A stretch of DNA of 59,851 bases, counting the filler, from Sluysia triapertura (lineage: Eukaryota), in NCBI GenBank assembly GCA_046118255.1. It is 4 parts of 4 records of this genome, joined end to end, with 100 filler letters (N's around TTAATTAATTAA, not from the genome) between each part and the next. Parts side by side here need not be neighbours in the genome. Positions count along the whole stretch, not along the records: positions 1 to 22,539 come from JBJNIA010222909.1; 3 more parts are not named here. One strand, 5' to 3'. This document shows positions 3,310 to 30,286 of this stretch, in pieces (the stretch's first letter is position 1; every line of letters begins with the position of its first letter). The position numbers and the translations under genes were made by a program. A model generated the notes under the pieces. That model did no database searches and was not told the DNA's origin. It saw nothing but the letters and a program-made list of their open reading frames with translations.

Positions 3310-3366
3310 CTGCAAATCTGTGTGCTGGCCCATCAGTGAGTAAGTCCAGTATCATAGAGAACTCAC
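3310..3366 (-). ncRNA. Hairpin short-intron-like repeat, copy 2
   Basis: Minus strand reads GTGAGTTCTCTATGATACTGGACTTACTCACTGATGGGCCAGCACACAGATTTGCAG (57 nt). It has a 5' splice consensus, a CTGAT branch-like motif and a TTTGCAG acceptor, and folds end-to-end leaving an AG overhang. Confidence 0.65.
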
Positions 3367-4199: not shown

Positions 4200-4750
4200 A
4201 ATATTATACCTTTTTATAAAGGTATCGATAGGTATTGCGGTAGGACTGAGACTCCAATATTCTTAACTTTGAAGTTGATGAACCCTTCATGTGAAGGATC
4301 TACAACCACCATTAATTTTAAATGCCTTATATGAATACCTCTCCAATCATAAATCCTTTATTATTGCAGCAGCTAGGGGCACTCTCAAAATCACTCTTTA
4401 TTAATAAGTTACCTCTTCGATATAGATTGCACGGATACTCATCTATGCTAGCTCAGTTTTTAACACGCAATTGCAGAATACAGATTGAAGCAAATGAGTA
4501 TCATTCAACATTTTCCATTTTATTTTCTTTAGATATAAATAAAACCCCCTTTTGTATAAATTTAACCTGACTATAGGCATAATGAAGGCTTGTATTACCC
4601 TATATCATAATAATACGGATGAAAAATTTTATTGAATGCTGCCCACCATCTTAAGGAAATGGTCTCTGACATTCTTAGGTTTTGGTTAGAAGCGTTATAT
4701 AATAAAATACTGGTCTCACCATATCCTAATATTATAATCAATACGTATAA
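4200..4750 (-). mobile_element. Degraded Ty3/Gypsy pol fragment (RT thumb/RNase H)
   Basis: Minus-strand peptides PKPKNVRDHFLKMVG..KF (cf. PxPKNVKELRSFLGMVGYYRKFI) and YSFAS (cf. IAFASR). Multiple stops and deletions. Confidence 0.5.
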
Positions 4751-7700
4751 TAAACTATAATATTTTAACTGTTAATATTATTGAATTTAAGTATTATTAT
4801 TATTATTTAGTATTATTATCTTTATTATTGAATTGTCATTTTCAGTTTAAAATTATTAGAATTCTACAATATATATTGTATCAAAATCAAAGTGCAAGAA
4901 GGTTAATGACCTTATATTCAGAATACGTAAATTAACTATATATATCGTTTGAAAAAACGCTTCATTACATAACAAGTTTACAACGGAAATTATAAGCAAA
5001 ATTTTTACGAATTCTTAATTGAAATTTTTACCCATTGTTAAAACGTATTATTGATCTAATTCGTTATCTCTTAATTGATTAAGGAAGAAATTTATTAAAC
5101 TCGAATTATCATTCATCCTATCCTTTTACAAATTCGTTAGTTTATCAATTTATAACACCATTCATTAAAATACGCTAAAACTTTTATTAAACCTTTAGTA
5201 TTTTTATATAACATGCATAAAATATAATTTTAATATCATTACGAATTATTGTAAAATTAAAACAATAATATTAAAATAATTATAATTAATAAAATTTACA
5301 TTTGTTTTAATATTACTTATTGTGTTTTCAATATTACTGTTTATTAAAATTCATTGTTAAATATAATTTTCTAAATTTACAGATTTTTCATTCGCCAGGG
5401 TATTTAAACAACTTTACGAATATCAATCAAATTATATAGTCATAATATACTTTTAAAATATACGAATTACAATAAATCCTAATCTGGTCATTCATATTAA
5501 TTTAATAAATTCACACCGGATCATTTTAGATCTAGCATAAAATCAGAAAAACCAACTTAGTTATATAGCGGATGTAAATTACTGAAAATAGTGCATTTTA
5601 CTTTGACCTCTATAAAATGTGCAACCGTAACCTTACCCCGGCACCTATGTGTAAGCCCAACATCTTCTGCTACTAATGTATCCAATTCATGCACAAGATT
5701 AATTAAATATGACAAAACTTTAGTTTCATTACTTTCTGATATACTGCCAGACAACTGTATTATATAATGATAAACCTAAGACATACTTTATAAGAATATC
5801 TAATCTTCTAAATACATCATCTTAATATTTTAAAATTTTTTAATATTAACTTACCCTCTTAATATTTAAACAAAAATGTTCATCAATTTAAACAAATAAT
5901 TACAAAATAATTTTTAAAATTCCTCTGTTGTATTTTAACTTATAAATAACTTTGTATAATATTGTAATTATTTATTTTTAAAAAACAATTGGAAAATCAT
6001 TATAAATCATTTCATAAAACAATAAGTATGTAATAGAAATTTAAAAGTAATTTATAAACGTTATTCATAATAATAACGTTTAATAACCTTGAACGCTAAA
6101 GGAAAATGACTATTTTATTACTAATCCTTATATAAAATTATATAAAGAGTGACTTTTTACATTCCAATCGAAATTTAAATTAATTTGTCGAGAAAATCAC
6201 ATGAAACTTCTTTAATATTTATACAAATCAAATAGTTGTAAAATAATTACAGCAAATTGATGTTTGAGTAGCTACACTGATCATGACTTTGACATTTAAT
6301 CGACCCAATCTTTCAAAATTAATCTGTGAACCATCATCACGTAAATCGTTAATAACCTTTTTGACATTAGTGATAAGATTTAGCATTTAGTTTATTTGTC
6401 AGTGTTGGAACAGAATTTACGCTAACATTATTCGTATTGTGCACTGTTAAGGAATACATTATAATTATACATAAATTTGTTACTTCTATGGCTTTCTGAC
6501 ACAAAAATTCTAACTAAAATTTCTACATTACGACGAATATGAAAATTATACAAATAAGATGTGAATTTGGATGAGCAACCAGAGCAAGGATAATAAAATC
6601 TTTTATATTTCAGATATAAAAATATAAAATAAAAAATTGCGAGATAGAAGAGGAAAGTACGTCACAATTAAGACAAGACGACAGTGAGCTTTGTGTTTAA
6701 CAAAAAAGTATTTTATTAAGCATTTAAATTTTTGTACGGATGGGTGGTGTGATGTTGCAAATGATATGGATAAAATTTGTTATAATGTAATTTTTGTGAT
6801 GAGGTTTGTGTACATGATTGTTATAATTTATGTGATGTGTACATAGGTATGGGCCGGACCACCACAGTAATGTTTCAGATTCTGGTTCCGTCTGCAGACG
6901 AGATTAATTAAATTTTTGATCTTATGGTTTAATGAGTTCAATTTCCGTTTAGTACTTCGGTTCTATTTTATTTTAATATTCGGTCTTATATGCCGAAAAT
7001 ATTTGATGTGCTTTTAGCAAGAAATTTATAACTTTATAAGTTAAGGAATTTTGCTAATGATCCACTTTAAAAGGATCAAGAAAAATTTTATAATTTCAGA
7101 TAAATATGAATAAAATCCGAGTTAAAAAATTAGTTATTAAATCACGTAAATTTGACAATATGTTAGATAAATATGATTGTAAAGATACTCGTTTGAGATA
7201 CGCTCACTTATGATTATACTCTTATGATTATAAATAATTATCAAAATATGTAAAATTAATTAAATATAAAATTAAATAATAAAAGTTTAACGAACTTATA
7301 AAAATTCTCAGAATATTAAAATTAACTCAATAATTGTGCTGTGGTTTTTCTTTATTTAATAGATCCTAGCAAATATAATTATATTTTATTCGGATTCGCA
7401 TGAAGTCGGTGATTTATTTGCGAACAAGACACTGCTTTACGATTTTCTCTTATTGAAAAAAAATTATGAAAGATATTCCATACACTTGGAAAATTACTAT
7501 AAATAATATTCAAATTTGATAGAGGGTCATACTTGAATATTTCAATTTAATATCTACTCTGAAATATTACAAATGAAAGTATTCTTTTTTCCTTATTCTT
7601 AACAGTTTACCAAATAACAAATAATATATTTAATTTTGGGCTTTTATAACGTTTATATGGTTCAAGGTTATTTAGATTTTGATTTTAACAATAACATAAA

Positions 7701-8114
7701 TCGCTAATATTAATTTGACTTCAAAAAATAATGACTAGTCAGACAACCATAAAATAACACGATACTCAACAATACCATGTAAAGTACATAAACAACTTTA
7801 TCGTATTTTGAGTTCCTTAAACAACGTGATTTAAGTGCAACTTCATTAATATTTTATGTTATAAAAAAATTAACCAAAACAGCAAATCTATTAATACGTA
7901 TATTTCTATTCTTTCATTTTATTGATACAAGTAAAATCTGTTGTAAAAATTCTTTTGATAAGAATATTGATAAAATTTTTGTAATTAGCATCAATTTTAA
8001 TTCACAATTTACTTATACAAAATTTTATCGACACAATTCAGTACCATGCCGTATTTCAATTGATTTATCTGTGAGAGTGTGAAGTAAAGCAATAGAATAA
8101 AGTAAAAGCTTAAC

Positions 8115-8152
8115 GTGAGTTCACCAGCTATGGCCAGCTGTTGGATTTGTAG
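8115..8152 (+). ncRNA. Hairpin short-intron-like repeat, internally deleted copy
   Basis: GTGAGTTCACCAGCTATGGCCAGCTGTTGGATTTGTAG, preceded by AGAATAAA. Same subfamily as the 33381 copy. Confidence 0.55.
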
Positions 8153-8596
8153 ATAAGAGTAAAAAGAATTTCCTCGAAATGCAACGTTGATTAAAAAGGG
8201 ACTTCTTTATTTATTTTTATTATTACCTTTTGAGATTTTTAGTATTTTAGTATTAATTTTTGAAGGTTTGTAGTCAAAAATTAATTCAATTGATATTTTG
8301 CGTAGATCCTATGAAAAAGATCGTTGATAATTATTTTACGTAGTTAGAATTAAAATCTAACTATGGAAAGCTTTTTCGTAGTACTGATTTTATATTTAAA
8401 ACTATTAATAAGGACTAAAAAATGGTACCAAAAATTTTATTAAAAAATGATTAAAAAGTTTTTTACAAAGTGTAAGTAAAAATAATAATAAAGTTACTAG
8501 AAGTAATTCCAATTTCTATGATATTTTAATACATGATTTTTCGAGGATCGAATATAAGATCTAAAATGTTTATTAGATAGTTTAAGTGGATTTTTC

Positions 8597-8800
8597 GTGC
8601 ATATCCCTAGGATATCTGAACTTATTAAAAATAAACTAACGGATATTTTATTAAATCTGGTCAAAAATCTTTATTTTGATTCTCGATATATCGAAGAAGA
8701 ACCAATAAAAATACACGTTGATCGAATGTACCAAAAATTTATTGTCACGGCTTTATTAAAAATTTTATTATCAAAAAGATTATTGTTGAAAATTGTCTAA
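8597..8800 (+). pseudogene. Unknown ORF family C remnant
   Basis: C-terminus KFIVTALLKILLSKRLLLKIV resembles KFIVQVIFILRRLFLDNLK of ORF 49657-49863 (-). Both lie downstream of the same hairpin module. Confidence 0.35.
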
Positions 8801-9487
8801 TGGTTATTATGAAATTAGAATTTATTAGTTCGTTATTTATATAGGGTTTGTTGACCTAGACCAGATTTGGATTTATTAAAATAAATTTTAAATTTAAAAA
8901 TTAGTTAATATTTAATATTTGCAAAATTAAAATTATTTAAATAACAAAGTTATTATTTAGAATATTTAAAAATAACAAATAACAATAAAACGTACTTTTA
9001 AATAGAAATCCTCAAAAACATTTAAACATTAAAAATAATTAAATAAAAATAATCAATAATTTAGTTCAAAGTAATACCTTTAATAAGTCACATAATATAA
9101 ATAATATAAGACAAGATAATATAACATATCTATTCATGTGTTAAATTAGTAGGGAAAATTAATACGAATTGCTGAAATAAGATTAATTATTAGTCAAGAG
9201 ATAAACCTACAGTGCTTAATTCAATTCCACTGTTTAATAATAAAATCAATCTTTCATTTAATTCATTTAATAAGGGGAAAAATATATAATTAAAATTTAA
9301 AATTAAAATAATTAAATACCTGAAGAAGTTTTAATTCTAAATTATATGTTTGATTATTTATTATTTATTTAAGAAAGTTAAACATAATATTAGACATAAT
9401 AATCTTGAAGTTTTTCTATTATTTATTGTTTATTAAATTTGAAAGATATTGATAAAGCATTTGTTAGATCCAAATAAATCTACTAAA

Positions 9488-9910
9488 CTATAATTGATGA
9501 TAAACTAAATATATTAAATGTTCAGGAAAAGTAGCCGAAATGATAGAATAACTTGCCGTAAGCGATATTAGAATTTCGAATAAATTGAAAATAAGCCTAC
9601 TAGATTTTGTTGAACATAGAACAATCCCGTTTATGTCACTGTTATGAATCATGAGATGAACTTTAACGTTGTATTTGAACTTATACTTATCAACGTGTCT
9701 GTTGATAACCTGATGATGAAGTATTTTAATTATGAACAATTTATAACTATAAGAAAAAGCTAAAATCTTTGTAAGAAATTAGTTTTCTAATCGTATTAAA
9801 AGTATATTCTAAGTGATGTTTTTAATCCATATTCTATCTTTAAATAGACAAATTCTAATAAAATACTTTACAAAATTAACAGTGCATAAAAGTTGGTTAA
9901 GTTTATTTCA
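9488..9910 (-). pseudogene. Unknown ORF family A, degraded copy
   Basis: VLCSTKSSRLIFNLFEILISLTASYSII resembles VQCSNSKNLL..LLDILITLVADISYI at 55.8 kb and FLDMITTVWIT in the 368-aa ORF. Confidence 0.4.
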
Positions 9911-10399
9911 ACCTGAACACAAATTAATTTCAATTCCTACGAACGAATAAGATGAATTTTATAGAATTGTAGAACAATTATATCCTATTTTAAATTTCTT
10001 CATTATGCGAAATAATTCAAATATTCTCTTAAATGTTTCGGGGAAATGATCTACCAATAGATTATGATTAAAAACAAGGCATTTATATATAAAAGCGATA
10101 TTAAACACATGTTTGAGCAAATAATCATAAAGTTCATAAATGCGCGGATGTATAAGGTAATATTCATCAATGAAAATATTGTGAGAATGAGGTTAATCAT
10201 GCAGGATACTAGGCGCCGCAAATACTTAATTACTGACAACATTATTGCAACTAGATCGTAAGTTAAAATATAAGATAGCTTCTTCGTGGTTACCTTAATT
10301 ATCAATATTAACCACTTAATGCTTGGATTATTTTTTACAAAAATTGAATTAATTTTTTATTTAAAAATTATTTGTTTCGTTTTTATCGTACATAAAGAA

Positions 10400-10620
10400 A
10401 ACAAACAAGTCACGTATTCATCGGGCTGGCGAAATCTGATCATTCAAAAACATGAAGTGGTTAATAATATGAACTGGAAAGTAACCTTCACAATCTGGTA
10501 TAGCTTCCAAGGGTTCTGAAACTATATCACATATACTTTCTTCCTTTTGATGTCAAAGAAATGAACTGGTTTCGTGGCGATACGACTAATTCTTTCAAAC
10601 ACAATTAAAATAGCAAAAAT
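10400..10620 (-). mobile_element. Degraded Gypsy integrase C-terminal (GPY/F) region
   Basis: Minus strand VHFFDIKRKK...FQNPWKLYQIVKV resembles the KFxxPWxGPYxIVK motif. Confidence 0.4.
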
Positions 10621-13600
10621 GTGAACACAAATTACATGAAAAAGGAAATTATTCAAGTAAACTAATGTTCAACATAGTGTATCAACATTGAAAATATTAC
10701 TTAATTTAATATAGTACTGAATTCATATAATACGGTATAATATTTTTAGTATAATAAGAATTTTACCACCAATTAATTTTTATTATTTTACAAATACTTT
10801 TTAATTGATGTAAAACAATAATTTGACCACTTATAATTTTTAATAATATTTTATACATTTATATATTTGATAAATTTTTTGTCAATGAAATTTGGATTGC
10901 GATGTTGTAACCAAAACAATGAGCATGATAACGTTGATATTGAATTTAGTAAAATGATAATGAAGTCGTCATGGTAATGGTAGCGGTATTTTGAATGTAT
11001 TTATTCATTTAATTCGTGTGAACTTTTGAGCTGCATAAATTTAAAATTTCATTTTAGATTTTAAATCGCATATCCATCTTTACCAAAGGATACAAGTTGA
11101 ACTAACAGTCAAAGTAGAAGTTACACCAACTACTAGTTGCAGACACGATAACTAGGCAAACAGTAAGACCTAAATAGGCACAACAAAAACACCTTACATA
11201 AACATTAAATCCAAATTTAAGATAACAAACTTCGAAAAACGGAAATTTAAAGAAAACCTATTGTTTAAAAAAATTTATTGTTGTAAAATGTAAAGCAAAT
11301 GAAAGGAAATTCATTATTTTAAGACAAAAAAGATACTTATTGTGATTAAAAGAAAAAAACTTGTTTCCAAATATAATTGAAAATATAAATGAAAATGAGA
11401 TGTACATAAAGAAAATTGATTATTATAACATAACAAGAACTTTGACAAATATAGAGTACGTTTAGATACTAAGAACATAATTAAAATAAGATAGAAAAAA
11501 TATCGTTTAAAATTGAAAATAATCGACGACAAAAGTAAGCTAAGACAGTTAAAAAGGAATTATGCCTCGGCAAAATTTAAAGCATTAATAGTTTCACAAA
11601 CGGTTGCGCTTTGATATCGATAACACTGTAAGACCCTATAGGTCAAGTCAACATTAATAAGGATATGACTCAAAATTTAAAATAAAAATAAGATTCGGAC
11701 ATTACAATTCTTAATACCAAGTTAAAGGATGTATTTATTTTATTTTGTTATATTATTACTAAATAATTTTATTTGTGTATTAGACTAGTAAATACAGTTA
11801 ATAATCCATATATGATAAAATATAATTAAATATGTTAACATTAGATTAGAACATATTTTCATTAATCCATTTAATATTACTTAAGTGTTGGTTTATTAAT
11901 TAGTTTTCAAGACGCAGTAGTAGCTGAAATGATTTTGAATTAATTTATTGAAGTTCTTATAATTATTATTACAAAATAAAAACGTTTAGTTATTTTAAAA
12001 CATTAAAAAAGTTCGTGGCAGTTCAACATAAACATAAAGTGGAAATGTACTTAATGTTAGAACTTCCCAAAGATGTTATTAGAAATTTAATGAGGATTTA
12101 AGGACAAAAGGGAATCAAATTAAAATCTTAAATATTTAAGATACTTCAAACAAGTTATAAAAGTAGCAATTATAAATGAAAAAAAAGAATCTCAATTGTC
12201 AAAGGTTGATACCAAACTTTGATGACAAAATTGTAATCATATTTGAAATTTTGAAGGAGTCTACATAATACATCTTAGATTGTTATTAATAACAAAGCAA
12301 TAACAAGTTCAACTAAAAACGAAATCCCTTTCAATATTGTAACAATAAACAATTACATATTTTGGATCAATAGAACCTTTGTAAAAAGGAAAAAGTTAGA
12401 ATTTCGAGAAAATGAATTTTAAAAATATCAATGTGTTTACATCTAAAATTAAGATAACGATGGAAATTTTATATTCCAACTTAAAATATTAAAAATGAAA
12501 ATATTTAAAAATGAACTAACATCTTTTATAATAAATCCATATCCAATATATTTGGTTTTGTGCGAATCAATAAATGCTGTGCGAAGATAGATTAAATTGA
12601 TACTATCAATTATTTCTATCTAATAATAATAATAATGATAATAATAATAAATAATAATAAAATTTATACAATGTTTTATAAAAATCTAATACTCTAATAA
12701 TTCCGACAAAAATGAAAATGTACAAATATACTTTATTTAAGATATTATGAGGTATAACGATAATAAGATTCTATAACATAATGTTATAATTAATTTGTAA
12801 TTATATTTATTAAACCGTAATTTTATTTAAACCGTAATTATTATTTAAACGATTATATTAATTATTAAAATTAATTATGCTGTACATATAAAGTAATGAC
12901 TACTTATATTTATTATTAGCAAAGAAAATAGAGTTTAAATTATTATGGTACTATATTAACATACATCAATTCACAGAACAAAACAGAGCCATTTTAATGA
13001 CTAAATTATAATTAGAACTATTAATAAATTGTGTTATGAAACTAATATTAGACAAAAATAGTAGAAATGTCAAAGGTCACGAAAAGTATATTGTTTATTG
13101 GATAAAAACGCACGTAATTTGTAGATCACATCGTGCGTTTCAAGTTTTAGCTAATCAAGTTATGAGAATTCAATTCATTCGCGAATTCAGAATTAAAAAA
13201 ATTAATTTATGGTTTTACTAAATAGTGAGTTATGTACATTAATAAGATTAAACTACTTTTACAGTAATTATTTTACGTACTTTATTGGTACGATACACTA
13301 AGAACTAAATTAATACATTAAAAATAAATACAATATTTATTCTAAAAATTTATTGTATCAATATCCGACTGTAGTTTAATTTTGTTTAATAAATAAATCA
13401 ACGATATTAATTATGTTATTTGAAAGTAAAACTTTTCATTCGAAACACAGATATAAAAAACGTATTTTGTCACATGAAAGTAGTTTATTCGCATAAAAAT
13501 AATTCTTAAAAAGGCCAACGTCCAAATTAAATAAATATATCTAAAGGGTGTAATGATCTGTGTTGGTTCACCTCGTAATTTATAAAATTAACATCTTAAC

Positions 13601-15048
13601 TCATAAAATCATTCACAAACAGCCAACATAAACATTTACAACCTTTCTGTTCACAATACACTAATCACATCTTTAAAACATTTATAATAAATTACATCCA
13701 TCAAACAACTTTAATGAAAACACACTTTTAAAACTCAAAATTCTTAATACAAAAGTAGTTGTTTGAATTTTGTCTTCGCCGTCATACAAATTGCAGGGAA
13801 ATCATATCAAAATATCCTTACTTCATCACATAAAACATCACTTACACACAGAACATTAAATAAACTACTAGACTCATTCAATAACAAACATAACTATTGT
13901 ACATAATTATCATGAACTATAGCTATTGTTATTACAAACCCAATCGTATTAAAATATATAATAATTATTAGGATTATTGTCGTATAATATAAATGCCACG
14001 ATTGCCACATAATAACATCAACCATTATTTTAAAACATAATAATTACGTTATTGTTATCATTATTATTTCTTTATCCTTATTATCAACCTTTCTTTTTAT
14101 TCTTTTGTTTTCCAGTTTATATATTTGTAACGTATGTAAATTATATGTATATTCTATTTTGGTATTTTATCTTTAAATATTATTGTTTTTAAATATTATT
14201 CCTTTTTAAATATTATTGATGTTAAATTATTATAATATATTTATTAGAAATATTAAATAATTATTAAATTTAAAATAATTGTTTTAAATAGTAAATATAC
14301 TATTTTATTTGTAGCATCACTAAAAATAGTGTTCCAAAACTTTATAAATATAGTTTCAACCAGTAATACAAAACACAAACAGTAATAAAAGTTTAAAACT
14401 TATTGATTTTAGTCTACTTACAGTTACTTTAAAACATTATTATTTGGAAACAGTTATCAATATTTTATAGTTAATATTTGAAACAGTGGCCAATATTTGA
14501 AAGATTTAGTTAAAGAAGATTAATTGTTCGAATTACCACTATTTAGAAGAATTAACTATTAATATTTGGAAAAATTGATTTATTAACATCTGGAGAATTA
14601 ATTAATCGTTAGTTTCATGTTTTTTAAGTTTGGTTAAGTATTTTTAATACTATAAAAATTCAATTTTTAATATTTAATTACATATTAATTATAAATTAAT
14701 ATTGTGTAATATTTATATAGAAGGATTTTCGAATTTTTGATATTAATTATACTATCAACGAACTTTAACTTTTGTATAGAACTTTTAATTGTGTTTTATG
14801 ATTAACAAATTCTATTGTATAAGTGCTTTAATACTTGTTGTCGTTTTTAATAAATAATTCATAATACATACGAATTTGTAGTTTTTTTGTTTTTAATAAT
14901 TCTTAGCATTTTAGTAAAAATAAATTTGAATTGTCACGGATAATTTTTAATATTGATTATAATAAAATTAACCAAATCGAAGAAACAGGTAGCATCAAAA
15001 TTAAATATCAACATTTGCCTCCAGTTCTTATATTTTTATTCTTAAAAG

Positions 15049-15101
15049 CTGCGAATCTATGTGCTGGCCTTTCAGTAAGTCCAGTATCATAAAGAACGTA
15101 C
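15049..15101 (-). ncRNA. Hairpin short-intron-like repeat, copy 3
   Basis: Minus strand reads GTACGTTCTTTATGATACTGGACTTACTGAAAGGCCAGCACATAGATTCGCAG (53 nt, GT..AG). The downstream flank shares ACTGGAGG with copy 2. Confidence 0.65.
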
Positions 15102-15119
15102 GTTAAGAATAAGACATTT

Positions 15120-15688
15120 AATCTTAATCTCATAACTAATTTAATAACTTCAACATTTCAATTGAACTGTCTCATAGAAAGTCAATTATTCGAATATCAC
15201 GGTCGCAAAAGATATACGTCGGTACTTCCTATGGATAATATTACTTTATTAATTACTGAGAAACAAGATCTAAAACTCAACAGACCACTTTCTATGGTTA
15301 TGCTAGCATCTTAATAATTTGGTAAATCCCATTGCCATATGTACCGATTTTTAGCTAATGAAGAGCGACATATTATTGCGATAATATATGTAGCACCAGC
15401 GAAATTAGAACAATTACATTTTCACTAAAAGGAACCCGAAAATATTTGTCATTATCAGAAATGTTGAGAAACGATCCAGCATTTTTAATATTAATTTTAG
15501 CTGCAATATTATTTATCATCGCTCTATCGATAGTTATACTGGTAATTATTATGTTTATGTCAAATAGATGTAAATATCCGTGTTTACCTCCAAATAATGA
15601 TGACGATGATCGATATAATATCCCACACAGAAATAATCTTCAGCCACCACCAGGATTTCCAATGGCACCACCCCCTGTCTATGAATAA
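15120..15688 (+). pseudogene. Type I membrane protein with Pro-rich tail and PPxY motif (5' part frameshifted)
   Basis: The frame is open upstream of the annotated start (TYYCDNICSTSEIRTITFSLKGTRKYLSLSEMLRNDP). It has a long hydrophobic TM segment and a tail ending QPPPGFPMAPPPVYE*. An upstream frame LNLITNLITSTFQLNCL.. may be the N-terminus. Confidence 0.6.
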
Positions 15689-15712
15689 GCAACGGGAAAT
15701 TATACACCATTA

Positions 15713-16703
15713 ATGTATGGCGGATGGCAAATGACAAGTTTAAAATCAGTTATGATAGCATGTATATGTATGACATGTATAATTAACGTACATACAAAAT
15801 CAATAATTACATACGCAAATATACAAAGTAATATTCCTAAAAACACCAATATTTCCATGAGTTGTTGCTTAGCTAATTGGTGTAAACATGGATTAGATAT
15901 TAGTAAATATATCAGACATTGGGTAATGATGTGTAACGGACTTGTAGAAAATCAATTGTTTAATATTACTTTGGAGTTAGAATTTGAATTTGAACCAAAC
16001 CAAGATTCAGAAATTATATCAATGCATAATTATAGAATTAGAACAAAACCTTATGTTTTTGATCATTTATCAATGTCTATAAAATTTCCAATGTTACTAT
16101 ATAGGGAAAGAAATAATTTTGTAAAAATAACAAACCCATTAACAAAAGTGCTATACTAATTGGTTACGAAATAAACAAAAAGAACCCACCCAAAAAGGAT
16201 TTTGATGAATTATTTGATAAAGAACAGCATTATGAACTAATACTTCCTAAAACTGATATGTATCTATTTTTCGCATTCGAACAAAATCTTACTTTTATCG
16301 AGGTTTGGATTCTACGTCATAAAGAAATTCACAATATACTTGGATTTTGGCCAGAATATAGAGTGTGCGATTTACGTGTGCCAATTTTAGACAAATTAGA
16401 TATTATTCCTACTCCAAAACCAGCCAGCACTACTACTACATTTCGAACAAAGCAAAAGTCATTTATCCCAATACGGCTGTAACTTATTCGGACAATTTAG
16501 ATAAGAATTTAAGTCTACTGAACAAGACTAATTTACAGAAAAATATAACAAATGACAATATACTAGAATTTTACCACGTTATATTGAGTTACTATATCTT
16601 AACTTCATTTCTTTTTCTTATAACAGCAATACACATTATGTTACAGGCTAATAAGTTTTATTTATTTATTAGACATAGGAGTCATCTTTTTATAAAAACA
16701 TAA
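15713..16703 (+). pseudogene. ~325-aa type I membrane glycoprotein split by two frameshifts
   Basis: ORFs 15713-16159, 16258-16482 (frame open from ~16156) and 16365-16703 join into one protein: signal-like MTSLKSVMIACICMTCIINVHT, Cys-containing ectodomain, PTPKPASTTTT stalk, several N-x-S/T sequons, C-terminal TM and short basic tail. Confidence 0.6.
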
Positions 16704-16724
16704 ACTATGAATGAAACATAGAGT

Positions 16725-16775
16725 GTGAGCATTGGTATCGTCTGCTTACTGACCACATGCGACGGCTGTTAACTG
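16725..16775 (+). ncRNA. Divergent hairpin short-intron-like repeat upstream of the RING ORF
   Basis: GTGAGCATTGGTATCGTCTGCTTACTGACCACATGCGACGGCTGTTAACTG has a GTGAG start, a CTTACTGA loop and end-to-end pairing. It is followed by a second donor GTGAGT (16789) and an acceptor TTTTAG (16952). Confidence 0.4.
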
Positions 16776-16952
16776 TCCATTCTCGGTCGTGAGTAGATTG
16801 GTGTTGGGGCTTATACCTTGTTTCACAATTAGTATAACATTTCTATAAATATTGAAATCAATTTATTTAAATTTTATAGTATTTTTCTTTTTAATTAACT
16901 TCGTAACAAATTTTGTATTACATGTATTTATTAATCTATTATATGATTTTAG

Positions 16953-17439
16953 ACAAAATTCATCGTCTTCTCTTCGTTTACCCTATGTTCTGCCTGTAGG
17001 CGTTCTATTCACAGATACTACGCTTTGACTGTTCCTTGTAAACATAGATTTCATTTTCATTGTCTGTATTTCTTGTTTGAGTCTGCTCCAAATCCTTTTC
17101 CTTTTTGTCATGTGTCGTACAACAATTAAGGAATGCGAGATATATTATAAAAGAGTATTTTGTCGTTCGTACAAATTTACTATTGAATATATTACACCTG
17201 GTGCATCTACTGTAGCACAATTTGGACTTCATGAAAATTCTACAGTTGACGTTTTTCGACCTGACAATAATACAAAAGTTTCTGTTTTGTACAATGGTTT
17301 TAAAGTTCCTAAACCTAATTATCCACAAGGACTAACGAAGTCCCAAAAACGTAATTATCGCAGACGACAATTGAGGAAATTTTATAAAACAAATAGATAC
17401 TTAGTTAATAACCCTATTATTAAAAAAGAAAAAATATAG
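16953..17439 (+). pseudogene. RING-H2 finger protein with Arg/Lys-rich C-terminus (one frameshift)
   Basis: Frame from 16986 reads CSACRRSIHRYYALTVPCKHRFHFHCLYFLFESAPNPFPFC, then a frameshift at ~17109 leads into MCRTTIKEC of ORF 17077-17439. This gives a complete C3H2C3 pattern. The tail is GLTKSQKRNYRRRQLRK. Confidence 0.8.
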
Positions 17440-17535
17440 TCACTTCATAAATATCGATAATCATATTATAAATATTAATAACTAGTATTCTTGTAAGTCT
17501 AAATAGAAACTGTATAAATATTATATTTAATTATA

Positions 17536-18361
17536 GTGCTAACTCACAATTATAAAGACAAAATCACTTTTTCATTATTTTTTATGCGTTTCTTTTCTCA
17601 CTCTCACAATTTTAATACAAGAACTTCATCAATCAACAATCTTCAACCAAAAGCAAGAATCATCAACCAACTTAAATCCTTTTACATCTCCGTCGATAAA
17701 TATTGTTCTAATTTATCTGCCCCTGCCTTTTTTCCTGACTACTTTTCAACTGATTGCCAGCTGAAGAGTGAATTAACGTTAAGTGTGGCTACACACCTTT
17801 TTTCCTTAAATCCCGAAAACCCACATATTACGTTACGGGGTTTGTCAAACGCGCTGGATGACTTTGATACCCTTTATATAGCTGTTGTGCGATGGGTAAC
17901 TAAAATAAATCTAACTGTTGGCAGTGCTCCCCTTTTATTGAGAATTGAAGGTCCTTCCACTTTACATCTTTCCGCTCTGACACGTAATTGCGGGATTTTT
18001 ATAGAGGCTCTGGAGTTTCCAACCTCAGCTGCGCTTATTCCCCCACCATTCCTTTCTCCACTTAAAAATCTATTTATAAATGATACGGTCAACATGGGAC
18101 TTCTTTCACCCACATTCCCCCCTTATCAGCTGAAGATGAAGACAGACTTATTTTCGTAGCTTATCACTACGTCCTTGATTTCATAATGAACCCCAAATTA
18201 CTGGTATCGCCTACACCCCGTTGAGTAAACAATTTCATTACGAGGTGCATATTAAGCCACGTGCCCGCATAAAAAATTTCCTAAGGGACACTCAATCGAT
18301 TTCCCCCGAAAATCTGAGAGACCCCAAGGATATCGATAGCGTCAAGCCCTATCACTTTTAA
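17536..18361 (+). pseudogene. Unknown ~270-aa protein, GC-richer than flanks, frameshifted near C-terminus
   Basis: The 207-aa ORF continues after shifts as LSAEDEDRLIFVAYHYVLDF and HNEPQITGIAYTPLSKQFHYEVHIKPRARIKNFLRDTQSISPENLRDPKDIDSVKPYHF*. No motif recognised. Confidence 0.55.
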
Positions 18362-19109
18362 ATATAGTAAACTAAAGTCTTTCAAACCATTATATTCAAC
18401 GCATAAATCGTATTCTTAATTTTAAAACCTAAATAAATCTCAAGAATTTATTCTAACATTCTTCATTTCACTTACAACTTAAATCATTTCTTTTATCTTC
18501 AAAAATAAATTTAATACAGCTTTAAAGAATTCATTTCTTTATGATGAAGCAACAACTATAACTGAAGCATAGTATACCACGTTACCGTTGCTCCTTCACA
18601 TAATAGCAATAGTTCTTATTTCTCAATCAAGATTTAGAAAGAAAAGATCATGTTTTCAAGATTGTTAAGAAATTTTATGTAATTTACTTTTACTTTTACT
18701 TTTAACAATGTTGTTGTTATTATTATTATCAACCATTAAATTATTTTAATTTATTTGATATCAAAACAGTTGCTGCCATTATCAGTATTGACACTTCTGT
18801 TCATGATTTTTATTAATATGCCAATACTGATGATGGTTAACCATCAGAAATCACCACTTTTCAATACCATCCAAGCATGAATGATATTATTCAGCTTAAT
18901 TTTTGTTAGAGTCATGATTGGATGGCCAACCACAAACTACTTTTTGTGATCTAATGTTTCCGTTGAGCTTAGCGAAAGTTTGTGTAAAATTGTTCGTTGT
19001 TTAACAATATGTCGTAAATTCCTAGAGATTTAGGTACCAAATTATGTGATCGGCAAAATATACCAGAAACAATTATATGTGTTAAAGGATCTTTTTTTAT
19101 AATGCATAT

Positions 19110-19640
19110 TTTATTATTACATGAAAAGAAAGTAAATTCGACCCTAATACTTGAAAAGAATTTGATCATAGTTATAAAACTGTTACATCAATGTGAACAA
19201 AGAAGAAGTAAATAATCGACTCTTCTATTTACCACTTACGTTGATGTTAAGTCAGAAAGTTCTTTAATTTATTTAGATAAGAGTCGTTTTATGTATTTGC
19301 TGCCATTATTTAAGAATTCGTTGAAAAGTCTTAGTCGGAGATCAAGTGAATGGTTAGCATTAGAGATAAAAACAGTTATTCAAAAATACTCCACTATATT
19401 ACGAGTTGTAAGGATTGATTTCTTTTTTTTCTGGTAAACAACTAACCATATCAGAGATCGTTGATGAAGGTAATAAAACAATTATTCTTATAATGAATTT
19501 ATGCAGATTAATCAGGAAGATTATTTTTAATAGGGTATCTTATGTAAGATTTAATTTTAAATTTATATTATTTTTTATCTTAGATAACACGTGCAGTAAC
19601 GAACCATTTAAAACTAATGCAAGAGTTAATTGATGAAATT
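19110..19640 (+). pseudogene. Unknown ORF family A, degraded copy
   Basis: TLILEKNLIIVIKLLHQ..LLFTTYVDVKSESSLIYL..SSEWLALEIKTVIQKY..VRIDF aligns with 56022-56204 (LTLSINKKVNFMTILNQ..LLFVDIKSSLIL). Confidence 0.45.
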
Positions 19641-19924
19641 AAATATGTTATTATATGTAATTAAGTTTTTTGTACGAAGTCTTATGTAATTTTCTCAAAC
19701 AAAGATTATGATAATAAAATTTAGTAGTATTTATTAGGAAATTAGCTTATTCTTGTAAAAATCATTATAATGGAATAAATCGGAGACATAAAATTATATT
19801 ATATAAGATCCTCAATAATAATTTTAAATATACTTTTTATATACTTATAAATTTTGAATCTAATGTTTCTAAACTGAAAACTACTTTCCTCATAATATCG
19901 GCAATTAGTACATTTATACTGTTC

Positions 19925-20100
19925 AGACTCAACATGGTTAATTCCTGCATCCATCAGGTCTTTATACTTGATACCTTAATAACTAGTTATAATTCAAATA
20001 TTACACTGAAACCTGGAAGGTTTAAATTAATACTAGAAAATATAAACTATTTTTATTTCTTTAACAATGTTGATCATTTAAAGAACTATCTATTACTTGA
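19925..20100 (+). mobile_element. Degraded Gypsy integrase zinc-binding region
   Basis: WLIPASIRS/ILDTL..PGRFKLILENINYFYFFNNVDHLKNYL resembles LxIPxSLRxxILxxxH..HxGxxKT..FYWxxMxxDV. Confidence 0.4.
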
Positions 20101-20539
20101 AGTTTATAAAATTATAAATCGATATGAACAACTTAAAATCAAACAATTAAAAAGATATTTAGTTCTAGAATTTAAATTCTTAAAATTATCAAACTTCCGC
20201 AATAACAAACCTCCAAAACTTAAAATATGAGAATATAAAATAAATTTGTTTAAATGGGTAATTGTTTTAATTACCTAATTTCATAAACAAAATGGAGGAA
20301 ACAAAAATACTATATAAGGTAAGCTAATTTTTGATAAAAACACAATTAAGGATTAAAAAAATCAAACGATCAAGAAAAACAAGAAAGTGAAAATTCTTCA
20401 AGAATTCATCAAGGAAAAACGTCAAATCGCAAAACAGAGTTCCATGAAAAAGTAATTTCGTTGTTTATAAGTTTCCAGAAGTCTTAATTTTACTAAAATA
20501 GGACATAACTTCTTACTTAAAATATCTAGTATATGTCAA

Positions 20540-20819
20540 ACCGTAAGAAGGCTGACTAAAATCACATTAAAATCTTTTTGAATCTAAGAAAAAGGAAATT
20601 TCCTTAAGATTTTAAATTGAATATCGGTATTATATATATACATGTAAAATTTTTATATTTATGTTCGTTGTAAAATTTTTTGGATTGATCACTGTATGAT
20701 TACTCTATTTTTTGTAGAATAGAATGACTCAATAGTTATGTTAACTTGTGTTATTTAAATTAGCAGTAGTAAAATTTTTAAAAAATTTGAATATTTGACA
20801 GACCGTAAGAAGGCTGACT
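20540..20819 (+). repeat. Perfect 18-bp direct repeat ACCGTAAGAAGGCTGACT (20540-20557, 20802-20819)
   Basis: Identical GC-rich 18-mer 262 bp apart in AT-rich DNA, just upstream of Gypsy pol debris. Confidence 0.8.
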
Positions 20820-20912
20820 CAACTTACGAATTAAATTAATTAAACTAATTCTTGATAAATATTGCTTCCAGTTGTTTGAGAAAAAAATTTAATAAATATT
20901 TGTTATTATAAG

Positions 20913-20949
<37 letters not shown>

Positions 20950-20989
20950 TAACAAATCTAGTTACCAGATATTTAAATTGTTAGGTGCG

Positions 20990-21900
20990 TTAGTATTAAT
21001 AAGGTCATTAGATAAAGTATGGATGTAAATTAATGTCAGTGACCTGGTTTTCAAATTTGATATATAAAGTCATACACATTAATATGAAAACACTATTAAA
21101 AAGTAGTTTTAAAAGTTTTTAACTGCAATTTTTAGAATTACATTTTAAATCAATTTGTGACTTAAAAAATTATACTAGTTGAGACCATTGATTTTTTATT
21201 TGGTTAATATTCAAATTGTTATTCAAGAACGTTCATCGAAAAAATTTGTTACTTTGTTCAAAGGAGTTACCAACAAGAAAAGATTAAAACATATTATCAA
21301 ATATCTAAGAAATTTGTCAGTTTATATTTCAATAAGATACCATTATTATAAAGAAGTAATAAAATTTATTTTTTAACTTCTGTAAACTTTAATTACAAAT
21401 TAACTTCGCGAGAATTTTATTATCTTCAAAGAAAAATAATAGTAAATTGTGTATTATTACTATAACACAATCTTATATATTAGTAGAATTATTCACTTAA
21501 ATTGTTTAAAAGTTCTAAATTATACGAGAAACTAATCAAGGAAATATTTCGTCCGACTACAATTGTTTAATTCAGTAACATCGTTTGGAACAAGTTCCAG
21601 TAATTCGAGTGCAAATATTCAATCACACATTTCATGCGATTGTCGAATGTAGACATCCCCACAATAGCATGTTCATTGTTCACGTAAGAAATTTTTCTCA
21701 TGATTTAGATGTGTATGTATTAAATATTTTCAAGAGCAAGTCAAAGTTTTATATTTGTTATTTATGGACTCGGGTGATCCTTTTGGATTTAGAATAATAA
21801 GCCCCTGACAAACATATTAACATTCCGTCTCCCAAAACAATTTAAACCACCTTATAAATAAGCACATTTGCCTATCATACAAAAAGTCATGAAATCACAA
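20990..21900 (+). mobile_element. Heavily deleted Gypsy pro-RT-RNase H remnant
   Basis: Ordered remnants: INVSDLVFKFDI (protease-like), LFKGV, REFYYL (cf. RExYPLP) and NNKPLTNIL (cf. TDHKPL). Confidence 0.4.
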
Positions 21901-22714: not shown

Positions 22715-23135
22715 AACAAAAATAGTAATAACAATTTGTAGTACAAACTAAAAATTATTACAATCTATTCATTGGAGCCAAAAATAGAGTGGAGTTAAAA
22801 ATTTTAGTGCCACAATTTAAATCCAGATAATATTTTAGACTTATATACCATCCATGCGGATTTCATTATTATCATCTATTTATCAAGCAAATCTCATTCT
22901 CAAAAAATTTGATACTAATTTGTTATATGGAATGTTTGTTAATGTAAAACAGTTACAATTGTAGTAGATCTACAAAAAGTTGCTGTTGATATATTTGGTC
23001 AGTATATCATGAGTACTGGAGAAAGTATGAGTCTTGCTAAACATGTATTAGCAATATGTTTCGTAAATAGTTCATTAAAAAATCCTTTTCAATGTCCACG
23101 AAAATTCACCATTATCTAATTATGAGTCCAAGCGT

Positions 23136-24242
23136 ATGTCTGAAATTACAATTCGTGCTATGAATGAAACTTCTACTAATTTATTGCCCTACCAATTAGA
23201 TAAAATTATTTATTCGTGTATGGATTCTGATAATGTTTTTGAACAAGGGCATTATGCCTCAGAAGGAGATTTCAATACAAGTTTATGGCATCAAACATTG
23301 GATTATGTAAAACAAGTACAACTCCTGAATTCGATCTTAGTAGATTCAAATGTACATGTACACATTAGAAAAGTAACGATAATCTCATATTTTAACGAAA
23401 GAGGATTCGTGATTTTAAACTTTAAAAACAATCCTTCTAAGAAAACTGTTAACGTAACAGATGAAATGGTTTCGGAGTCCGTAACAAGCAAAAGGTTATC
23501 GATTGTCATAGAAATTGCTCAAATGTCAAAGTATAAAACAATTATTGACAATAATGATCACATATTTCTACAAGCAGATTTTGTACAAAATGCACAAGAA
23601 CAAGTTAAAACTCATGGCTCTGCTGATTTTCTAGAAACTCGTAAGATTTCTAAATTTAATTTGTTAAACAACTTTGTAAATTATGATTTTAGTCATTTAT
23701 ATAATTATTTTCTAGATATGATTACAACGGTTTGGATTACACGGCACGCAACGGTCAAATACAGAAATTATAAAGACATCACAAGTACAAATAAAATTCC
23801 ATTGTGTGTAATAGATTTTAATGTTTTTTATTTAGTTTCTTTTATTTTAATTGAAATCTTTTTATTAAATGATAATGAATTAAAAATCGAGATTAGATGT
23901 ATAAATAGCCATTATATAAAATTGCTTAAGTTAAGGAAACAAATATATGCTCATAGATTTACTATTATCAATGATGCTCATAATCGAAATTCGGACACAA
24001 CTCTGGTTCTGCATTTTAATAAAACCTGCAATCAAAAGAATATTGAACAAATTATAAAATTCTTATATCTCATTTTACTACGACATGAATTAAGCTCTTC
24101 ATGTACGTACGTCAATTCTAAATTAATAATATATTCTCTTTATAATACTAATATAAACTTAACGCCCTCAACCATAACTTTATCACAATCTTTTCAACAT
24201 TTCATAACTATAACCCTCCAAAACGTTTATTTTAAAATTTAA
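23136..24242 (+). CDS. 368-aa intronless protein of unknown function (most intact member of family A)
   Basis: Longest ORF in the window, highly unlikely by chance at this AT content. A disrupted coding-like frame extends upstream (~22950-23120). A purine tract AAAAGGGTAGA followed by TGTAAAG at ~24787-24805 resembles a PPT/3' LTR start. Confidence 0.7.
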   Translation: MSEITIRAMNETSTNLLPYQLDKIIYSCMDSDNVFEQGHYASEGDFNTSLWHQTLDYVKQVQLLNSILVDSNVHVHIRKVTIISYFNERGFVILNFKNNPSKKTVNVTDEMVSESVTSKRLSIVIEIAQMSKYKTIIDNNDHIFLQADFVQNAQEQVKTHGSADFLETRKISKFNLLNNFVNYDFSHLYNYFLDMITTVWITRHATVKYRNYKDITSTNKIPLCVIDFNVFYLVSFILIEIFLLNDNELKIEIRCINSHYIKLLKLRKQIYAHRFTIINDAHNRNSDTTLVLHFNKTCNQKNIEQIIKFLYLILLRHELSSSCTYVNSKLIIYSLYNTNINLTPSTITLSQSFQHFITITLQNVYFKI

Positions 24243-25939: not shown

Positions 25940-28900
25940 ATGCTTAAAGCTGAAATAAATTATTTAATTTTACTGTTTGAAAAAAATCCAGAACATAACT
26001 TGTCCATTCCAAAAAAATATCTGTGTCATGCCTGTAACAAATTAATGATCATTTCATATCGATATAATAAGAACAATTTCTGTTGGCGGTGCGCACCGTA
26101 AGTATTTTTGATTTTCATTTTTTTAGTAAAAAACTTTAAAATATTAATTTAACTTAATTTTAAGAGAAAATTTTATTTTTATTATGTTGGAATATTAACT
26201 CATTTATTTATTCTTGTAATATTGTTATAATCTTCATTTTCGACATCTTCATCTATTCTGGATTTAGTTTCTTCGGATTTCATTTTCTTTAATAATCGTT
26301 GGCTCAAGTTTTCATGTTTGACAATGAAGCTATCCTTTAACTCGTACTAGCTTGCTTAAGATTGGTTTTATCACATGTATTTGTAGATCATGGTCGGAAT
26401 TTTGTAACAGTTTTGGGTGACTTTCTTAGCTATTTTTATAATCTTTGTGGTTCGTATGAATCTACACTGAAAATGCATTTTTATAGAATTTTATTCAAAC
26501 GAATTCGAAATAGTTTTAATATTTTTGTGCTATATTAATATCAAGATACAAGACATTCAAACTTTGCCTTATTTAAGAATTCCTATCTGGAAACTTTTCA
26601 CTGCGAAACATTTGTGACATCAAATGATGTGTTTACAAAACCAGATGTCGTTCTCCACAGAAGAGTTACTTAAATTACGTGACAAATTTTTTCTTTTAGA
26701 TAGCAAAACAAGAATTATTCGATCTATTTCACACCAATGTTTTGTCAATTTTTAAAAATTGTGTACGAAAGATGCAGCAGTTTCAAATGGTGCAGGATTT
26801 TATAAACTAATATTACTCATTTATTATTGAAAATGTTTAAGATATTGTGTCAAAAGCAGCAGACATCCAACAAAATAATCACAACACATTTATTCTTAAG
26901 ATAGCTGTGTTTGTGTTGAGTGATAAGCTGGTACACTGGTACGTTGAGATTTTGACAATTGTTGTAAAATAATAACCAAAATAAGCTTTGTGAAAATTGA
27001 ATTATTTTTGATAAGTTCGGTTGGTATTGGATCAATAGAACTCGTATTTGACATTTCCGACAATCTTTATTAAATCGTTTTCATTAATTATCTTAAATTC
27101 AAATTCATTTATGTTTTTATTTTGTAGTTCTAATTTAATATTTAATTTATTAATGCTATTTTGTATATTTTCTACTTAAGTTACAAAAACTTTTTAATAT
27201 TTTATCATTTCCATTTTTTGCCAAATAATTTACTTAGTAATTTATAGATATTTTTAATATTTGATTTATTAATTCTAAATAATAATATTAATGAATAAGA
27301 ATAATAATTTTCCAGGTTTTGTAGTATCATGCAATGTGTTGTATTCTGATCATATATAAAGCTGAATTATACAAAAACATTAAATAAAATAGACAGTTAA
27401 TATAATCAGTTTTAGCCTAAGTGAAGCCAGAAAACGACCACCATCAACAGATAATTGAAAAGAATTTTTACTTGATTCGATATCGGTACAACTGATCAAT
27501 AAAATAACAAAATAAAATTTTCTTAGTAAAGAAATAATTTGAAATAAATTTGTGATTTAAATTAATTAAGAAAAATTTATTTACACCATTAATTCAGTAG
27601 AAAATAACATTTATATTTATGAGAAGGATATGGCACATTTACATGCAACATAGTACAGTAAGTTTACTTATTGATCAGTTATATTAAACTATATTATAGT
27701 TATAACGAGTAATGAATTATACTAATAATCGTCACAATATCATTAGTTAATTTAACACTAGAAGGGCCAGAATTGACGCAAATGCTTGCAATTGGCTGAT
27801 ACTTTCATAAGTGTGTTGGAAGTAAGGTTATGATACCATGGTAATTTTGTTGAGGTAAAAAGGCCTAAGGTGCCATTTGGTAAAATTGACTATAATAAAA
27901 TAAAATCGTTAGACGGGGCTGATACCTCAGTGGTACATCATCGAACTGTGTAGCTAGGGGTCCCGGGTTCAATCCCCGGTCAGTACTTTTTACGATTTTC
28001 CCATGTAAACTCGGTGATGTCATTACTCAAATATGTCATTTGCGTCAATTGACGCATTTGGTCTTTCTAGTGTTAATATATTACCCTTAAAATCTATTCT
28101 ATACTTTCGAAAAGCAATCTTAAGTTTACTTCACATTGTTTTTGTTTAATTAGTTTATTTTATTATTATTTCTTGAACTGTAGAAACAGCTACTTTAAAT
28201 TACAATAACATAATGGAAAATCTTTGTATTACATGAGTGTAATAAAACTGCTTCTATAAAAGTTAAATTAAAATCACATAGTACAGTCAATTACTATGGC
28301 AAACTCATAAAAAAACTAGTAGAATTTGTTTTGATTTTTTATACTTTGATTTAAGTTATTCTACGTTATTTTAATTTAATGTAAATTTCGAAAAGTTCTT
28401 TTAATTTGATTTTGTTTTTGATATATTTTGTGCTTCGAATAATACTTTTATATTACGATTTTCATTTCTCGAAAAATTTGATTTTAAATTTACGATTTAA
28501 TTTTGAATGTTTTTTGTTTGTATATTTTTGTATATGTATTGGAGGTTAATTAAAGTTTATCTTTATGCAAGTTTTCGAACTTATTTCTTGTCTATGTTTA
28601 TTCTTTTTTGATTCCTACTTTTTATAGTTAAATTATGACCTTGAACGTGTTTAAAACAAAAATAAGTAATTATTATTTAATTTATATTTTATAATATTAA
28701 AATTTATTATTCCAATACTCATCAGTTATAATTTTATTATCTTTACAATTAATAAAACATTGAATATAAATAAAACTTTTTTAATAAAACTTGTTAAAAA
28801 TCAATAAAAAATTAACTTACCAAAAATCAGAGAATTTAATAACTTTAACATCGGGTTGAAAATCGATAAATTTATAATTAACAGTATTATTCGTTCGTCT

Positions 28901-30286
28901 ACTTAAACTTTTAGCATTTTGCGCGTATAAGCGGCATTTGCCTTAAATTCATTCCCATGGCTAAAGATATAAATAGATTGATTTGAGCAAATAAACATAA
29001 CTAATTTATGATTATTTTATTACTCATACTACTTATTATTGCCTAAAAAATTTAAAATTCTTTAAAAAGAACATTTTATAATATATGTTTAATTTAAGTT
29101 TATAAAAGCCCTATTTATTAAAATTCCAATGAATTTTTTTAATTAAAACTATATTATTTGTTAAAATAGTACTTCAAACTCATTTTTGTGAAAACTGATA
29201 TTCTATTTCGAGTTATCCTTTATTATTCATTGAAATGTCAATATTTATTTGGCGAATTTTGTTAGATCTAAATTAATTAAAATTAATATCACAAATTTAG
29301 ATAATTCGAAAATATAATAAGAAATTAATATGAATTCAAAGAAAATATGACTAATAAATTAATATTTTGAATAAATTTTTATAAAGAAACAAATTTTAAT
29401 GATTTTATCTTATTTCAGATGTAATGATCCTGTGGAATGCGATGGTTTGTTTTAATTTACTATAATCTACTCAATTTTAGCAAATTTATTTTTAACCTGT
29501 ATTTTTCGGGATCTTTGTGCTCAACCTAAATTTTGTTAAAATTTTATGTGTTTTGAAATTACTTTTAATATTTTGCTGAGATTTTAAGTAATATGGAGTT
29601 TAAGTAATAATTATTTTGTTAAGAACACAGAAGTTTAGAATTTTGTGAGAATAAATTCCTTTAATTTAATTTATTTAAAAATTTTCCAATTTATTTTTTA
29701 TTGAATGTCAAACTTAGACTTATTGATATTATCTTTATTCAGCAAACGCTCATATTAACCTTGAAATACAAGATTTGTTAATACCGTGTTTCAATGATGG
29801 TTGTAAAGAAGAATGTTATTTAAAAAATATGGTTAGCGTTATAAAAAATCTTACAGTTATTTTAATATTAACAAAATATTTAAATTTTTATTTGAAAATT
29901 ATTGTTTTGTATAATTTGAGATTGAACATGAAAAAGTTTGTCCTCATTTAAAAATAATTTGTGATGAACCAGTGTGCAGTGGTATGTATAAACGAAAAGA
30001 TAAAGAAAGACATGAGCTTTTTGATTGTATAAATCGTAATGAAACGGTTCCTATATGTGAATCTGGTGGCATCTCTAATGCCTTAGAAGAAACTTGGGAA
30101 GTCAAATTTGATGATCTTGACTTAGATAAAAATTTATCTATGAAATTTCGAAGTGGATTAATAATATCTCTTCGAATTGAATATGAAGATATAAAATATC
30201 TATCGATGATGTTAAACTATGAAGCTAGATATGAAAGAAATGCACGAATTATTTTGCGGAGTCCAAATAGGATTCCATGTAGTTAG
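25940..30286 (+). CDS. TRAF-like RING/zf-TRAF protein; exons 25940-26097, 29419-29444, 29743-29831, 29921-30286
   Basis: Phase-consistent splicing (2,1,0) gives ..KYLCHACNKLM..FCWRCAPCNDPVECDANAHINLEIQDLLIPCFNDGCKEECYLKNMIEHEKVCPHLKIICDEPVCSGMYKRKDKERHELFDCINR.., the TRAF RING-linker-zinc finger pattern. No MATH domain seen. The last acceptor is GAG. Confidence 0.8.
26840..27050 (-). mobile_element. Non-LTR (L2/CR1-type) reverse transcriptase fragment
   Basis: SIDPIPTELIK, AYHSTQT and IILLD/SAAFDTI match LDPIPTxLLK, AYRxxHSTET and VLLDLSAAFDTV of L2-clade RTs, with large internal deletions. Confidence 0.75.
27756..28072. mobile_element. piggyBac-type MITE (317 bp) with TTAA target duplication
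   Basis: TTAA|CACTAGAAGGGCCAG..AATTGACGCAAATG on the left. The reverse complement of the right end is TTAA|CACTAGAAAGACCAAATGCGTCAATTGACGCAAATG. Confidence 0.85.
27916..27986 (+). tRNA. tRNA-like pseudogene/Pol III cassette (nominal anticodon GTG)
   Basis: A-box TACCTCAGTGG, perfect T-arm CCGGG-TTCAATC-CCCGG, acceptor stem GGGCTGA/TCAGTAC, and a TTTTT terminator at 27987-27991. D and anticodon stems do not pair. Confidence 0.65.

Follow-up and report, generated by a model that had tools for sequence, protein, structure and literature searches.

Positions 15120 to 18361 of the window (the whole stretch of 59,851 nucleotides of Sluysia triapertura DNA that was analysed) hold a block of coding pieces on the plus strand: two membrane units, a RING-H2 gene and an orphan gene, separated by short spacers and bordered by repeats (Table 1).

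Table 1. Features of the block and of the DNA adjoining it
Feature	Position	Strand	Remark
Abundant repeat module at the end of the single-copy DNA (about 13800-13850)	13770..14100		bin depth 36675 at 13801-14067
Dispersed structured repeat adjoining the truncated start of unit 1	15018..15111	-	
Membrane unit 1	15120..15688	+	5'-truncated, broken ectodomain remnant, TM, Pro-rich tail with PPxY
Unit 1 TM	15494-15550	+	hydropathy, KD19 3.5
Unit 1 PPxY	15671-15682	+	40 residues past the TM
Membrane unit 2	15689..16703	+	signal-like stretch, Cys-containing ectodomain, TM, short basic tail; three overlapping frames
Unit 2 signal-like hydrophobic stretch	about 15731-15793	+	hydropathy at 15734, 1.7
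Unit 2 TM	16581-16637	+	hydropathy 1.9
Long G-U-rich hairpin in the unit 2/gene 3 spacer	16720..16830	+	RNA fold z -2.85 on +, -0.40 on -
TATA-like box upstream of gene 3	16844..16850	+	sequence match only
Gene 3	16943..17439	+	RING-H2 finger, beta-rich middle, Arg/Lys-rich tail
Spacer between genes 3 and 4	17440..17583	+	144 nt, TATAAAT at 17467 and 17513
Gene 4	17584..18361	+	orphan, about 260 codons, GC 40%, broken at 18157
Very abundant repeat module directly 3' of gene 4	18362..18630		depth up to 120870

Coding content of the block

The block is a real coding region. Its plus strand carries six stop-free stretches of at least 100 codons, which cover 73.5% of its length, and its minus strand one (10% covered), while 500 dinucleotide shuffles of the same interval gave at most two such stretches and at most 24% coverage. 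The co-oriented coding pieces that an earlier, sequence-only reading had placed here are thus borne out. Codon position 3 is the most AT-rich in eight of the nine block pieces tested. With 31.8% GC, the block is also GC-richer than its left (19.9%) and right (24.1%) flanks, as that reading had stated, and than the rest of the window (22-23%), which as a whole is AT-rich (about 22% GC) with many microsatellites and decayed repeats. The genes had further been called intronless. The coding pieces are free of GT(A/G)AG splice donors; three such donors do lie in the two spacers (at 16725, 16789 and 17493), so that short leader introns may occur.

The count of genes needs revision. A TM/PPxY unit, a signal/ectodomain/TM unit, a RING-H2 gene and an orphan are all present as proposed, but units 1 and 2 share one reading frame and are separated by a single stop at 15686, which is absent in one contig and in a loose end of seven contigs, both from other copies; probably, therefore, there are three genes and not four. 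The damage to the block, described earlier as light frameshifting, is present but heavier in unit 1, which is without a start or a signal peptide and contains two adjacent stops and a frame switch. Because unit 1 begins where the dispersed structured repeat ends, it was probably cut at its 5' end, and this repeat is likely a separate insertion. Among the short-read contigs listed, those identical letter for letter to this copy cover 16764-17063, 17335-17965 and 17938-18214, which include the stop of gene 4 and the region where gene 3 lacks an in-frame start. Both defects are therefore genomic.

All calls of TM segments, the signal-like stretch and topology were made by hydropathy (KD19), without SignalP or TMHMM. 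The topology predicted in this way places the PPxY motif of unit 1 on the cytoplasmic side of the TM. In the other-copy contig that is free of the stop between the two units, the PPxY is kept and the tail is shorter, and in the seven-contig loose end the motif is replaced by other residues; it is thus not invariant across copies. Late domains are typically found in Gag or in a matrix protein. The role of a viral late budding domain, previously suggested for this motif, was not borne out: the protein whose tail bears the PPxY is a membrane protein, like the herpesvirus NEDD4 adaptors treated in the cited part of PMC5849660, and by this analogy the motif would fit an adaptor of NEDD4 better than a late domain.

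The ectodomain of unit 2 contains Cys residues and N-x-S/T sequons. Of the envelope-type topology once proposed, the signal-like stretch, the sequons and the TM were recovered, but no homology to an envelope or fusion protein was found in Pfam, PHROGs, PDB sequences, phmmer searches or viral contigs. It has been pointed out that TM domains and glycosylation sites alone are no proof of an env (PMC5408684, in the portion cited). Pieces of unit 2, compared as single sequences and not profile against profile, showed no match to F-type env, and neither an R-x-x-R site nor a PA domain was seen in this unit. A test of paralogy between units 1 and 2 gave a best z of 3.0 (13 of 1000 shuffles, among 66 pairs), with z of 1.6 or less for the other pieces, so that a common origin of the two units is conceivable but short of significance.

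In gene 3, the first six ligands of a RING-H2 finger are in frame at 16986-17063, the sole such match in the window, and the ligand pattern arose in 0 of 2000 shuffles. Together with a Pfam zf-RING_2 match (E 6.7e-5, below the gathering score), this upholds the earlier RING-H2 assignment. The finger is weakly like those of cellular HRD1 and RNF38 (E 0.04-0.06), and gene 3 is predicted to encode a RING E3 ligase. In this copy the gene lacks an in-frame start, its frame is broken near 17110 and the last ligand pair of the C3H2C3 pattern is disrupted; a loose end from other copies has that pair in a single frame. Among the 40 best-supported of 222 differences seen in other copies, 6 of 10 in the RING piece are synonymous against 2.9 expected (P 0.03), with the zinc ligands unchanged, which speaks for selection within the family. 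There is no such excess in the second half of the gene (3 of 8, P 0.38), for which a single-sequence fold reached a pLDDT of 56. A SUMO-like domain was also considered for gene 3 and was not supported by the searches. The corresponding fold of gene 4 had a pLDDT of 33.

Spacers and adjoining repeats

The spacer between unit 2 and gene 3 (250 nt) contains the long hairpin and a TATA-like box. In another copy, the spacer between genes 3 and 4 is only 21 letters long and retains TATAAAT. In total, three TATA boxes occur in the 396 nt of the two spacers, compared with a window mean of 0.94 per kb. The core of the hairpin (bin 16728-16803) has a depth of 19335 as against 127-508 in the adjacent bins, which makes it about 40-150 times deeper, and has other 5' neighbours in five contigs; several units may use it in common, as a promoter or as the head of a cassette. 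It had earlier been taken for a copy of the hairpin at 15049, a relationship refuted by a family model (no match at E up to 5) and by alignment scans, neither of which placed it in that family. A bacterial contig matching a 20-mer of the hairpin was dismissed as a chance match.

The dispersed repeat next to unit 1 belongs to a structured family of 75 nt, with copies at 3297-3372(-), 15036-15107(-), 33375-33450(+) and 35937-36012(-) and weaker ones at 8109-8165(+) and 1619-1694(-). Of the 10 pairs in its model, 5 show changes in both partners among four copies. The first letters of the repeat form a donor-like word of the GT(G/A) type; the complement of this word comes again about 20 nt further on, and a pseudoknot may therefore form. 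The repeat is without an Rfam match; the Rfam search returned nothing at the gathering score and weak matches at chance level only.

DNA to the left of about 13850 is single-copy, as shown by an identical contig with a depth of 15.8 over 13000-13849. The abundant modules on either side of the block (13770-14060 and 18360-18680) were compared as a candidate LTR pair and found to be dissimilar (z 0.7, 127 of 500 shuffles). The intervals 18340-18500 and 13730-13900 are very abundant in the sequencing run, and their translations resemble what we take to be the C-terminal end of a CR1/L2-type LINE ORF2. Beyond the right-hand module, a strong hairpin (18766-18851, z -4.14) precedes another decayed coding region on the plus strand (18850-20230).

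Elsewhere, the window contains an intact orphan frame of 387 codons without a Pfam match (23079-24239, plus strand), a frame of 277 codons with a 7-residue acidic tandem repeat (58017-58847, minus strand), a TRAF-type zinc-finger fragment (29727-30283, plus strand; Pfam E 0.0024) and a weak SUI1/eIF1 fragment (21179-21373, plus strand; Pfam E 0.0029). Two tRNA-like repeats at 27884-27966 and 53035-53118 are 80% alike. Fragments at 51390-51830 (plus strand) resemble a Helitron PIF1 helicase; Pfam gave nothing there at E 0.005. Three stretches of N with the same linker lie at 22540, 33671 and 46267, and the order across them holds at scaffold level at most.

Other copies and searches for relatives

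Other copies were studied in contigs of one sequencing run, which matched 60% of the words of the stretch. The interval 13000-21000 drew 6199 contigs, 4487 of them less than 95% alike, and the interval 16500-18750 drew 1738, of which 1187 fell below that level. Contigs of a single locus have depths of about 10-35; the bins of the block sum to 285-32048 in the first set and to 126-19335 in the second, a summed depth that is not a copy number. The whole block is a multicopy, diverged repeat family. The junction of units 1 and 2 recurs in another copy in a contig over 15485-15797 with 51 differences, that of unit 2 and gene 3 in joints at 16639-16997, 16803-16883 and 16940-17068, and that of gene 3 and the gene 4 spacer in a joint at 17436-17526. 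No contig of the run spans the whole block, and each junction is represented by one to three contigs, several of which have sides of 22-58 letters and unread middles. Together these junctions support the order 1-2-3-4 in other copies. The coding differences found over 13000-21000 (24 rows, from tables of the 40 best-supported rows each) are mostly non-synonymous, an outcome that private decay of this copy would produce. What lies here is a decayed remnant, 3.2 kb long, of a cluster of genes that is found again, in unchanged order, in many diverged copies. This recurrence, and the failure to find a cellular single-copy orthologue, agree with the sequence-only reading.

Apart from a generic RING, no homologue was found for any piece of the block. 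Word-index protein searches gave nothing for gene 4, for the N-part of unit 2 among longer proteins or for the second half of gene 3. Among 1.84 billion representatives, phmmer detected no orthologue of the unit 1 tail plus the unit 2 N-part; its two matches, to a phage-tail-like protein and to the TM region of a protocadherin, were both repeat-driven and were rejected. PHROGs, PDB sequences, viral contigs, metagenome contigs and phage records held no relatives, and the single-sequence folds were poor and without a structural match (best Z 4.4). A paper on this cluster was not found in the literature searched; Repbase entries and Grohme 2018 with its supplements were outside that search and may contain it.

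Nature of the carrier

Core genes of a carrier were sought with Pfam in 148 of the 372 stop-free stretches of 40 or more residues in the window, chosen by length and composition. No reverse transcriptase, integrase, gag, capsid or polymerase family was present at E 0.005, nor any ATPase or pPolB family, and the earlier statement that the block itself lacks a recognisable polymerase or capsid was confirmed. Between 13700 and 20300 there are no convincing terminal inverted repeats, only AT-rich matches of 70-89% up to 43 nt long. The missing LTR pair limits membership in, but not likeness to, the Burro/Gypsy elements, because this copy looks like a fragment. Of the proposal that the block belongs to an endogenous virus or an env-bearing retroelement, the part that concerns mobile-element cargo is well supported, but no viral or retroelement core gene or terminus was found with it, and 'virus' and 'envelope' are inferred.

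That the block is internal accessory cargo, carried by a large mobile element, is in our view likely. That the carrier is a Burro-like giant Gypsy LTR retroelement is a tentative identification, somewhat short of probable. The best explanation overall, to which we give roughly balanced confidence, is a piece of a recurring cluster that likely belongs to the internal accessory part of a large, virus-like element, with a giant Gypsy of the Burro kind as the leading candidate. An intact copy would produce units 1 and 2 as a single precursor, and cleavage by signal peptidase would yield two surface proteins that each cross the membrane once. The tail of unit 1, with its PPxY, might then recruit a host NEDD4-family ligase that sorts or removes membrane proteins, be it the element's own or a host receptor, and the RING E3 ligase of gene 3, with its basic tail directed to the nucleus or to nucleic acid, may mark host proteins for degradation. 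The orphan gene 4 is likely expressed from its own TATA-bearing spacer, and the cluster as a whole would spread by means of enzymes that the element itself encodes and that this fragment lacks. It has been suggested that the giant retroelements of planarians are proviruses interfering with ubiquitination in the host (PMC6431247, in the part cited).

This explanation is favoured by the repeat-family status, the kept order, the synonymous excess in the RING piece, the donor-free coding pieces, the lack of a cellular orthologue and the parallels with Burro. It is weakened by the lack of a core gene, an LTR pair, an F-type env likeness and an R-x-x-R site, by thin junctions from a single run, by the absence of the PPxY in the seven-contig group, by the second half of gene 3, which shows no synonymous excess, and by the mostly non-synonymous coding differences over 13000-21000. 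The TATA boxes in both spacers, moreover, would be explained at least equally well by a DNA element in which every gene has its own promoter. An origin as cargo of this kind, with a Maverick/Polinton or some other DNA virus integrated in the genome as the carrier, has to be weighed: the genes are co-oriented, their short spacers contain TATA boxes, of which TATAAAT is kept in the shorter spacer of another copy, and a putative fusogen is found alongside cargo genes in nematode Mavericks according to the cited part of PMC10680173. The window stretches scanned, however, yielded none of the polymerase, integrase, ATPase or capsid families, no convincing long inverted repeat was detected in 13700-20300 and viral contigs offered no relatives, and we regard this origin as unlikely. 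A rather improbable reading is that of the structural and accessory region of an undescribed lineage of enveloped endogenous flatworm virus. Its envelope would be a tandem glycoprotein precursor that signal peptidase cleaves and that is unrelated to known fusion proteins, and the virus would also have a tail acting as NEDD4 adaptor and its own RING ligase.

The unusual depth of the hairpin core and its varied 5' neighbours would be expected of a shared cassette head, and the block could accordingly be a chain of promoter-plus-cargo cassettes of a non-viral gene-capturing element (Helitron-like or hairpin-led) with a RING taken from a host gene, for which the weak resemblance to the HRD1 and RNF38 fingers also speaks. 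Yet apart from the RING no piece matches a known host protein, and the order 1-2-3-4 recurs in other copies; we see only a small chance of this. PA-TM-RING ligases such as RNF13 and GRAIL combine a PA domain, a TM and a RING-H2 in one reading frame. A TM upstream of the RING-H2, with splice signals between unit 2 and the RING (donor GTGAGT at 16789, acceptor TTTTAG at 16952), would be in keeping with a host origin, in which the block is one pseudogenised copy from a multigene cluster restricted to this lineage and units 2 and 3 were possibly spliced into such a signal-ectodomain-TM-RING ligase. Identity with these ligases was rejected, as unit 2 stops at 16701, ahead of either donor, and has no PA match, and a host cluster in general is very unlikely given the lack of an orthologue of the unit 1 tail and unit 2 among 1.84 billion representatives and the fixed order of four unrelated, intron-poor genes amid repeats. 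Finally, some genes are as much as 100-fold deeper than others and the junction evidence is thin, as might be seen if unrelated repeats lay side by side by chance; with all four pieces on one strand and every junction bridged by contigs of other copies, this is hardly credible.

A high-copy family with an orphan tandem membrane precursor, a PPxY tail and a RING ligase would enlarge the range of accessory genes with a new set, and might bring in a surface-protein class that is new as well. Until the carrier is found, the claim is one of a new cargo block and not of a new virus. The block is filed under neither Burro nor Maverick, because the core genes and ends of these elements were not found here.

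Among known systems, Mavericks/Polintons are alike in being virus-like multigene mobile DNA with a fusogen and cargo genes (PMC10680173, cited in part), and differ in their core genes and terminal inverted repeats, neither of which was found in the block. The bdelloid LTR retrotransposons Vesta4, Vesta6c and TelKA resemble it as invertebrate repeats with small orphan membrane ORFs that contain Cys; in the cited part of PMC5408684 they have one ORF3 after pol, whereas the block has three or four genes, a PPxY and a RING and no pol. The herpesvirus NEDD4 adaptors UL56, ORF0, UL42 and U24 are likewise membrane proteins with a cytoplasmic PPxY (PMC5849660, in the section cited); unit 1 differs in its predicted type I topology with an ectodomain, and is likened to them by the placement of the PPxY and not by sequence. 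Planarians have thousands of copies of Burro elements, which carry RING, ubiquitin-like, MATH, BIR and env domains along with accessory ORFs (PMC6431247 and PMC11410931, as far as cited). Their domains lie mostly in one gag-env-pol polyprotein of 4900-5100 aa and their env is F-type, whereas the genes of the block are small and separate, showed no Burro domain but the RING, and were found without gag, pol or LTR (PMC6431247, cited passages). What the block has in common with these Burro/GYPSM1 giant Gypsy elements is high copy number, probably the same host group, a RING, membrane protein genes and accessory ORFs (PMC6431247, same passages), and their trait of many diverged copies is matched in the run, where the block is multicopy and diverged.
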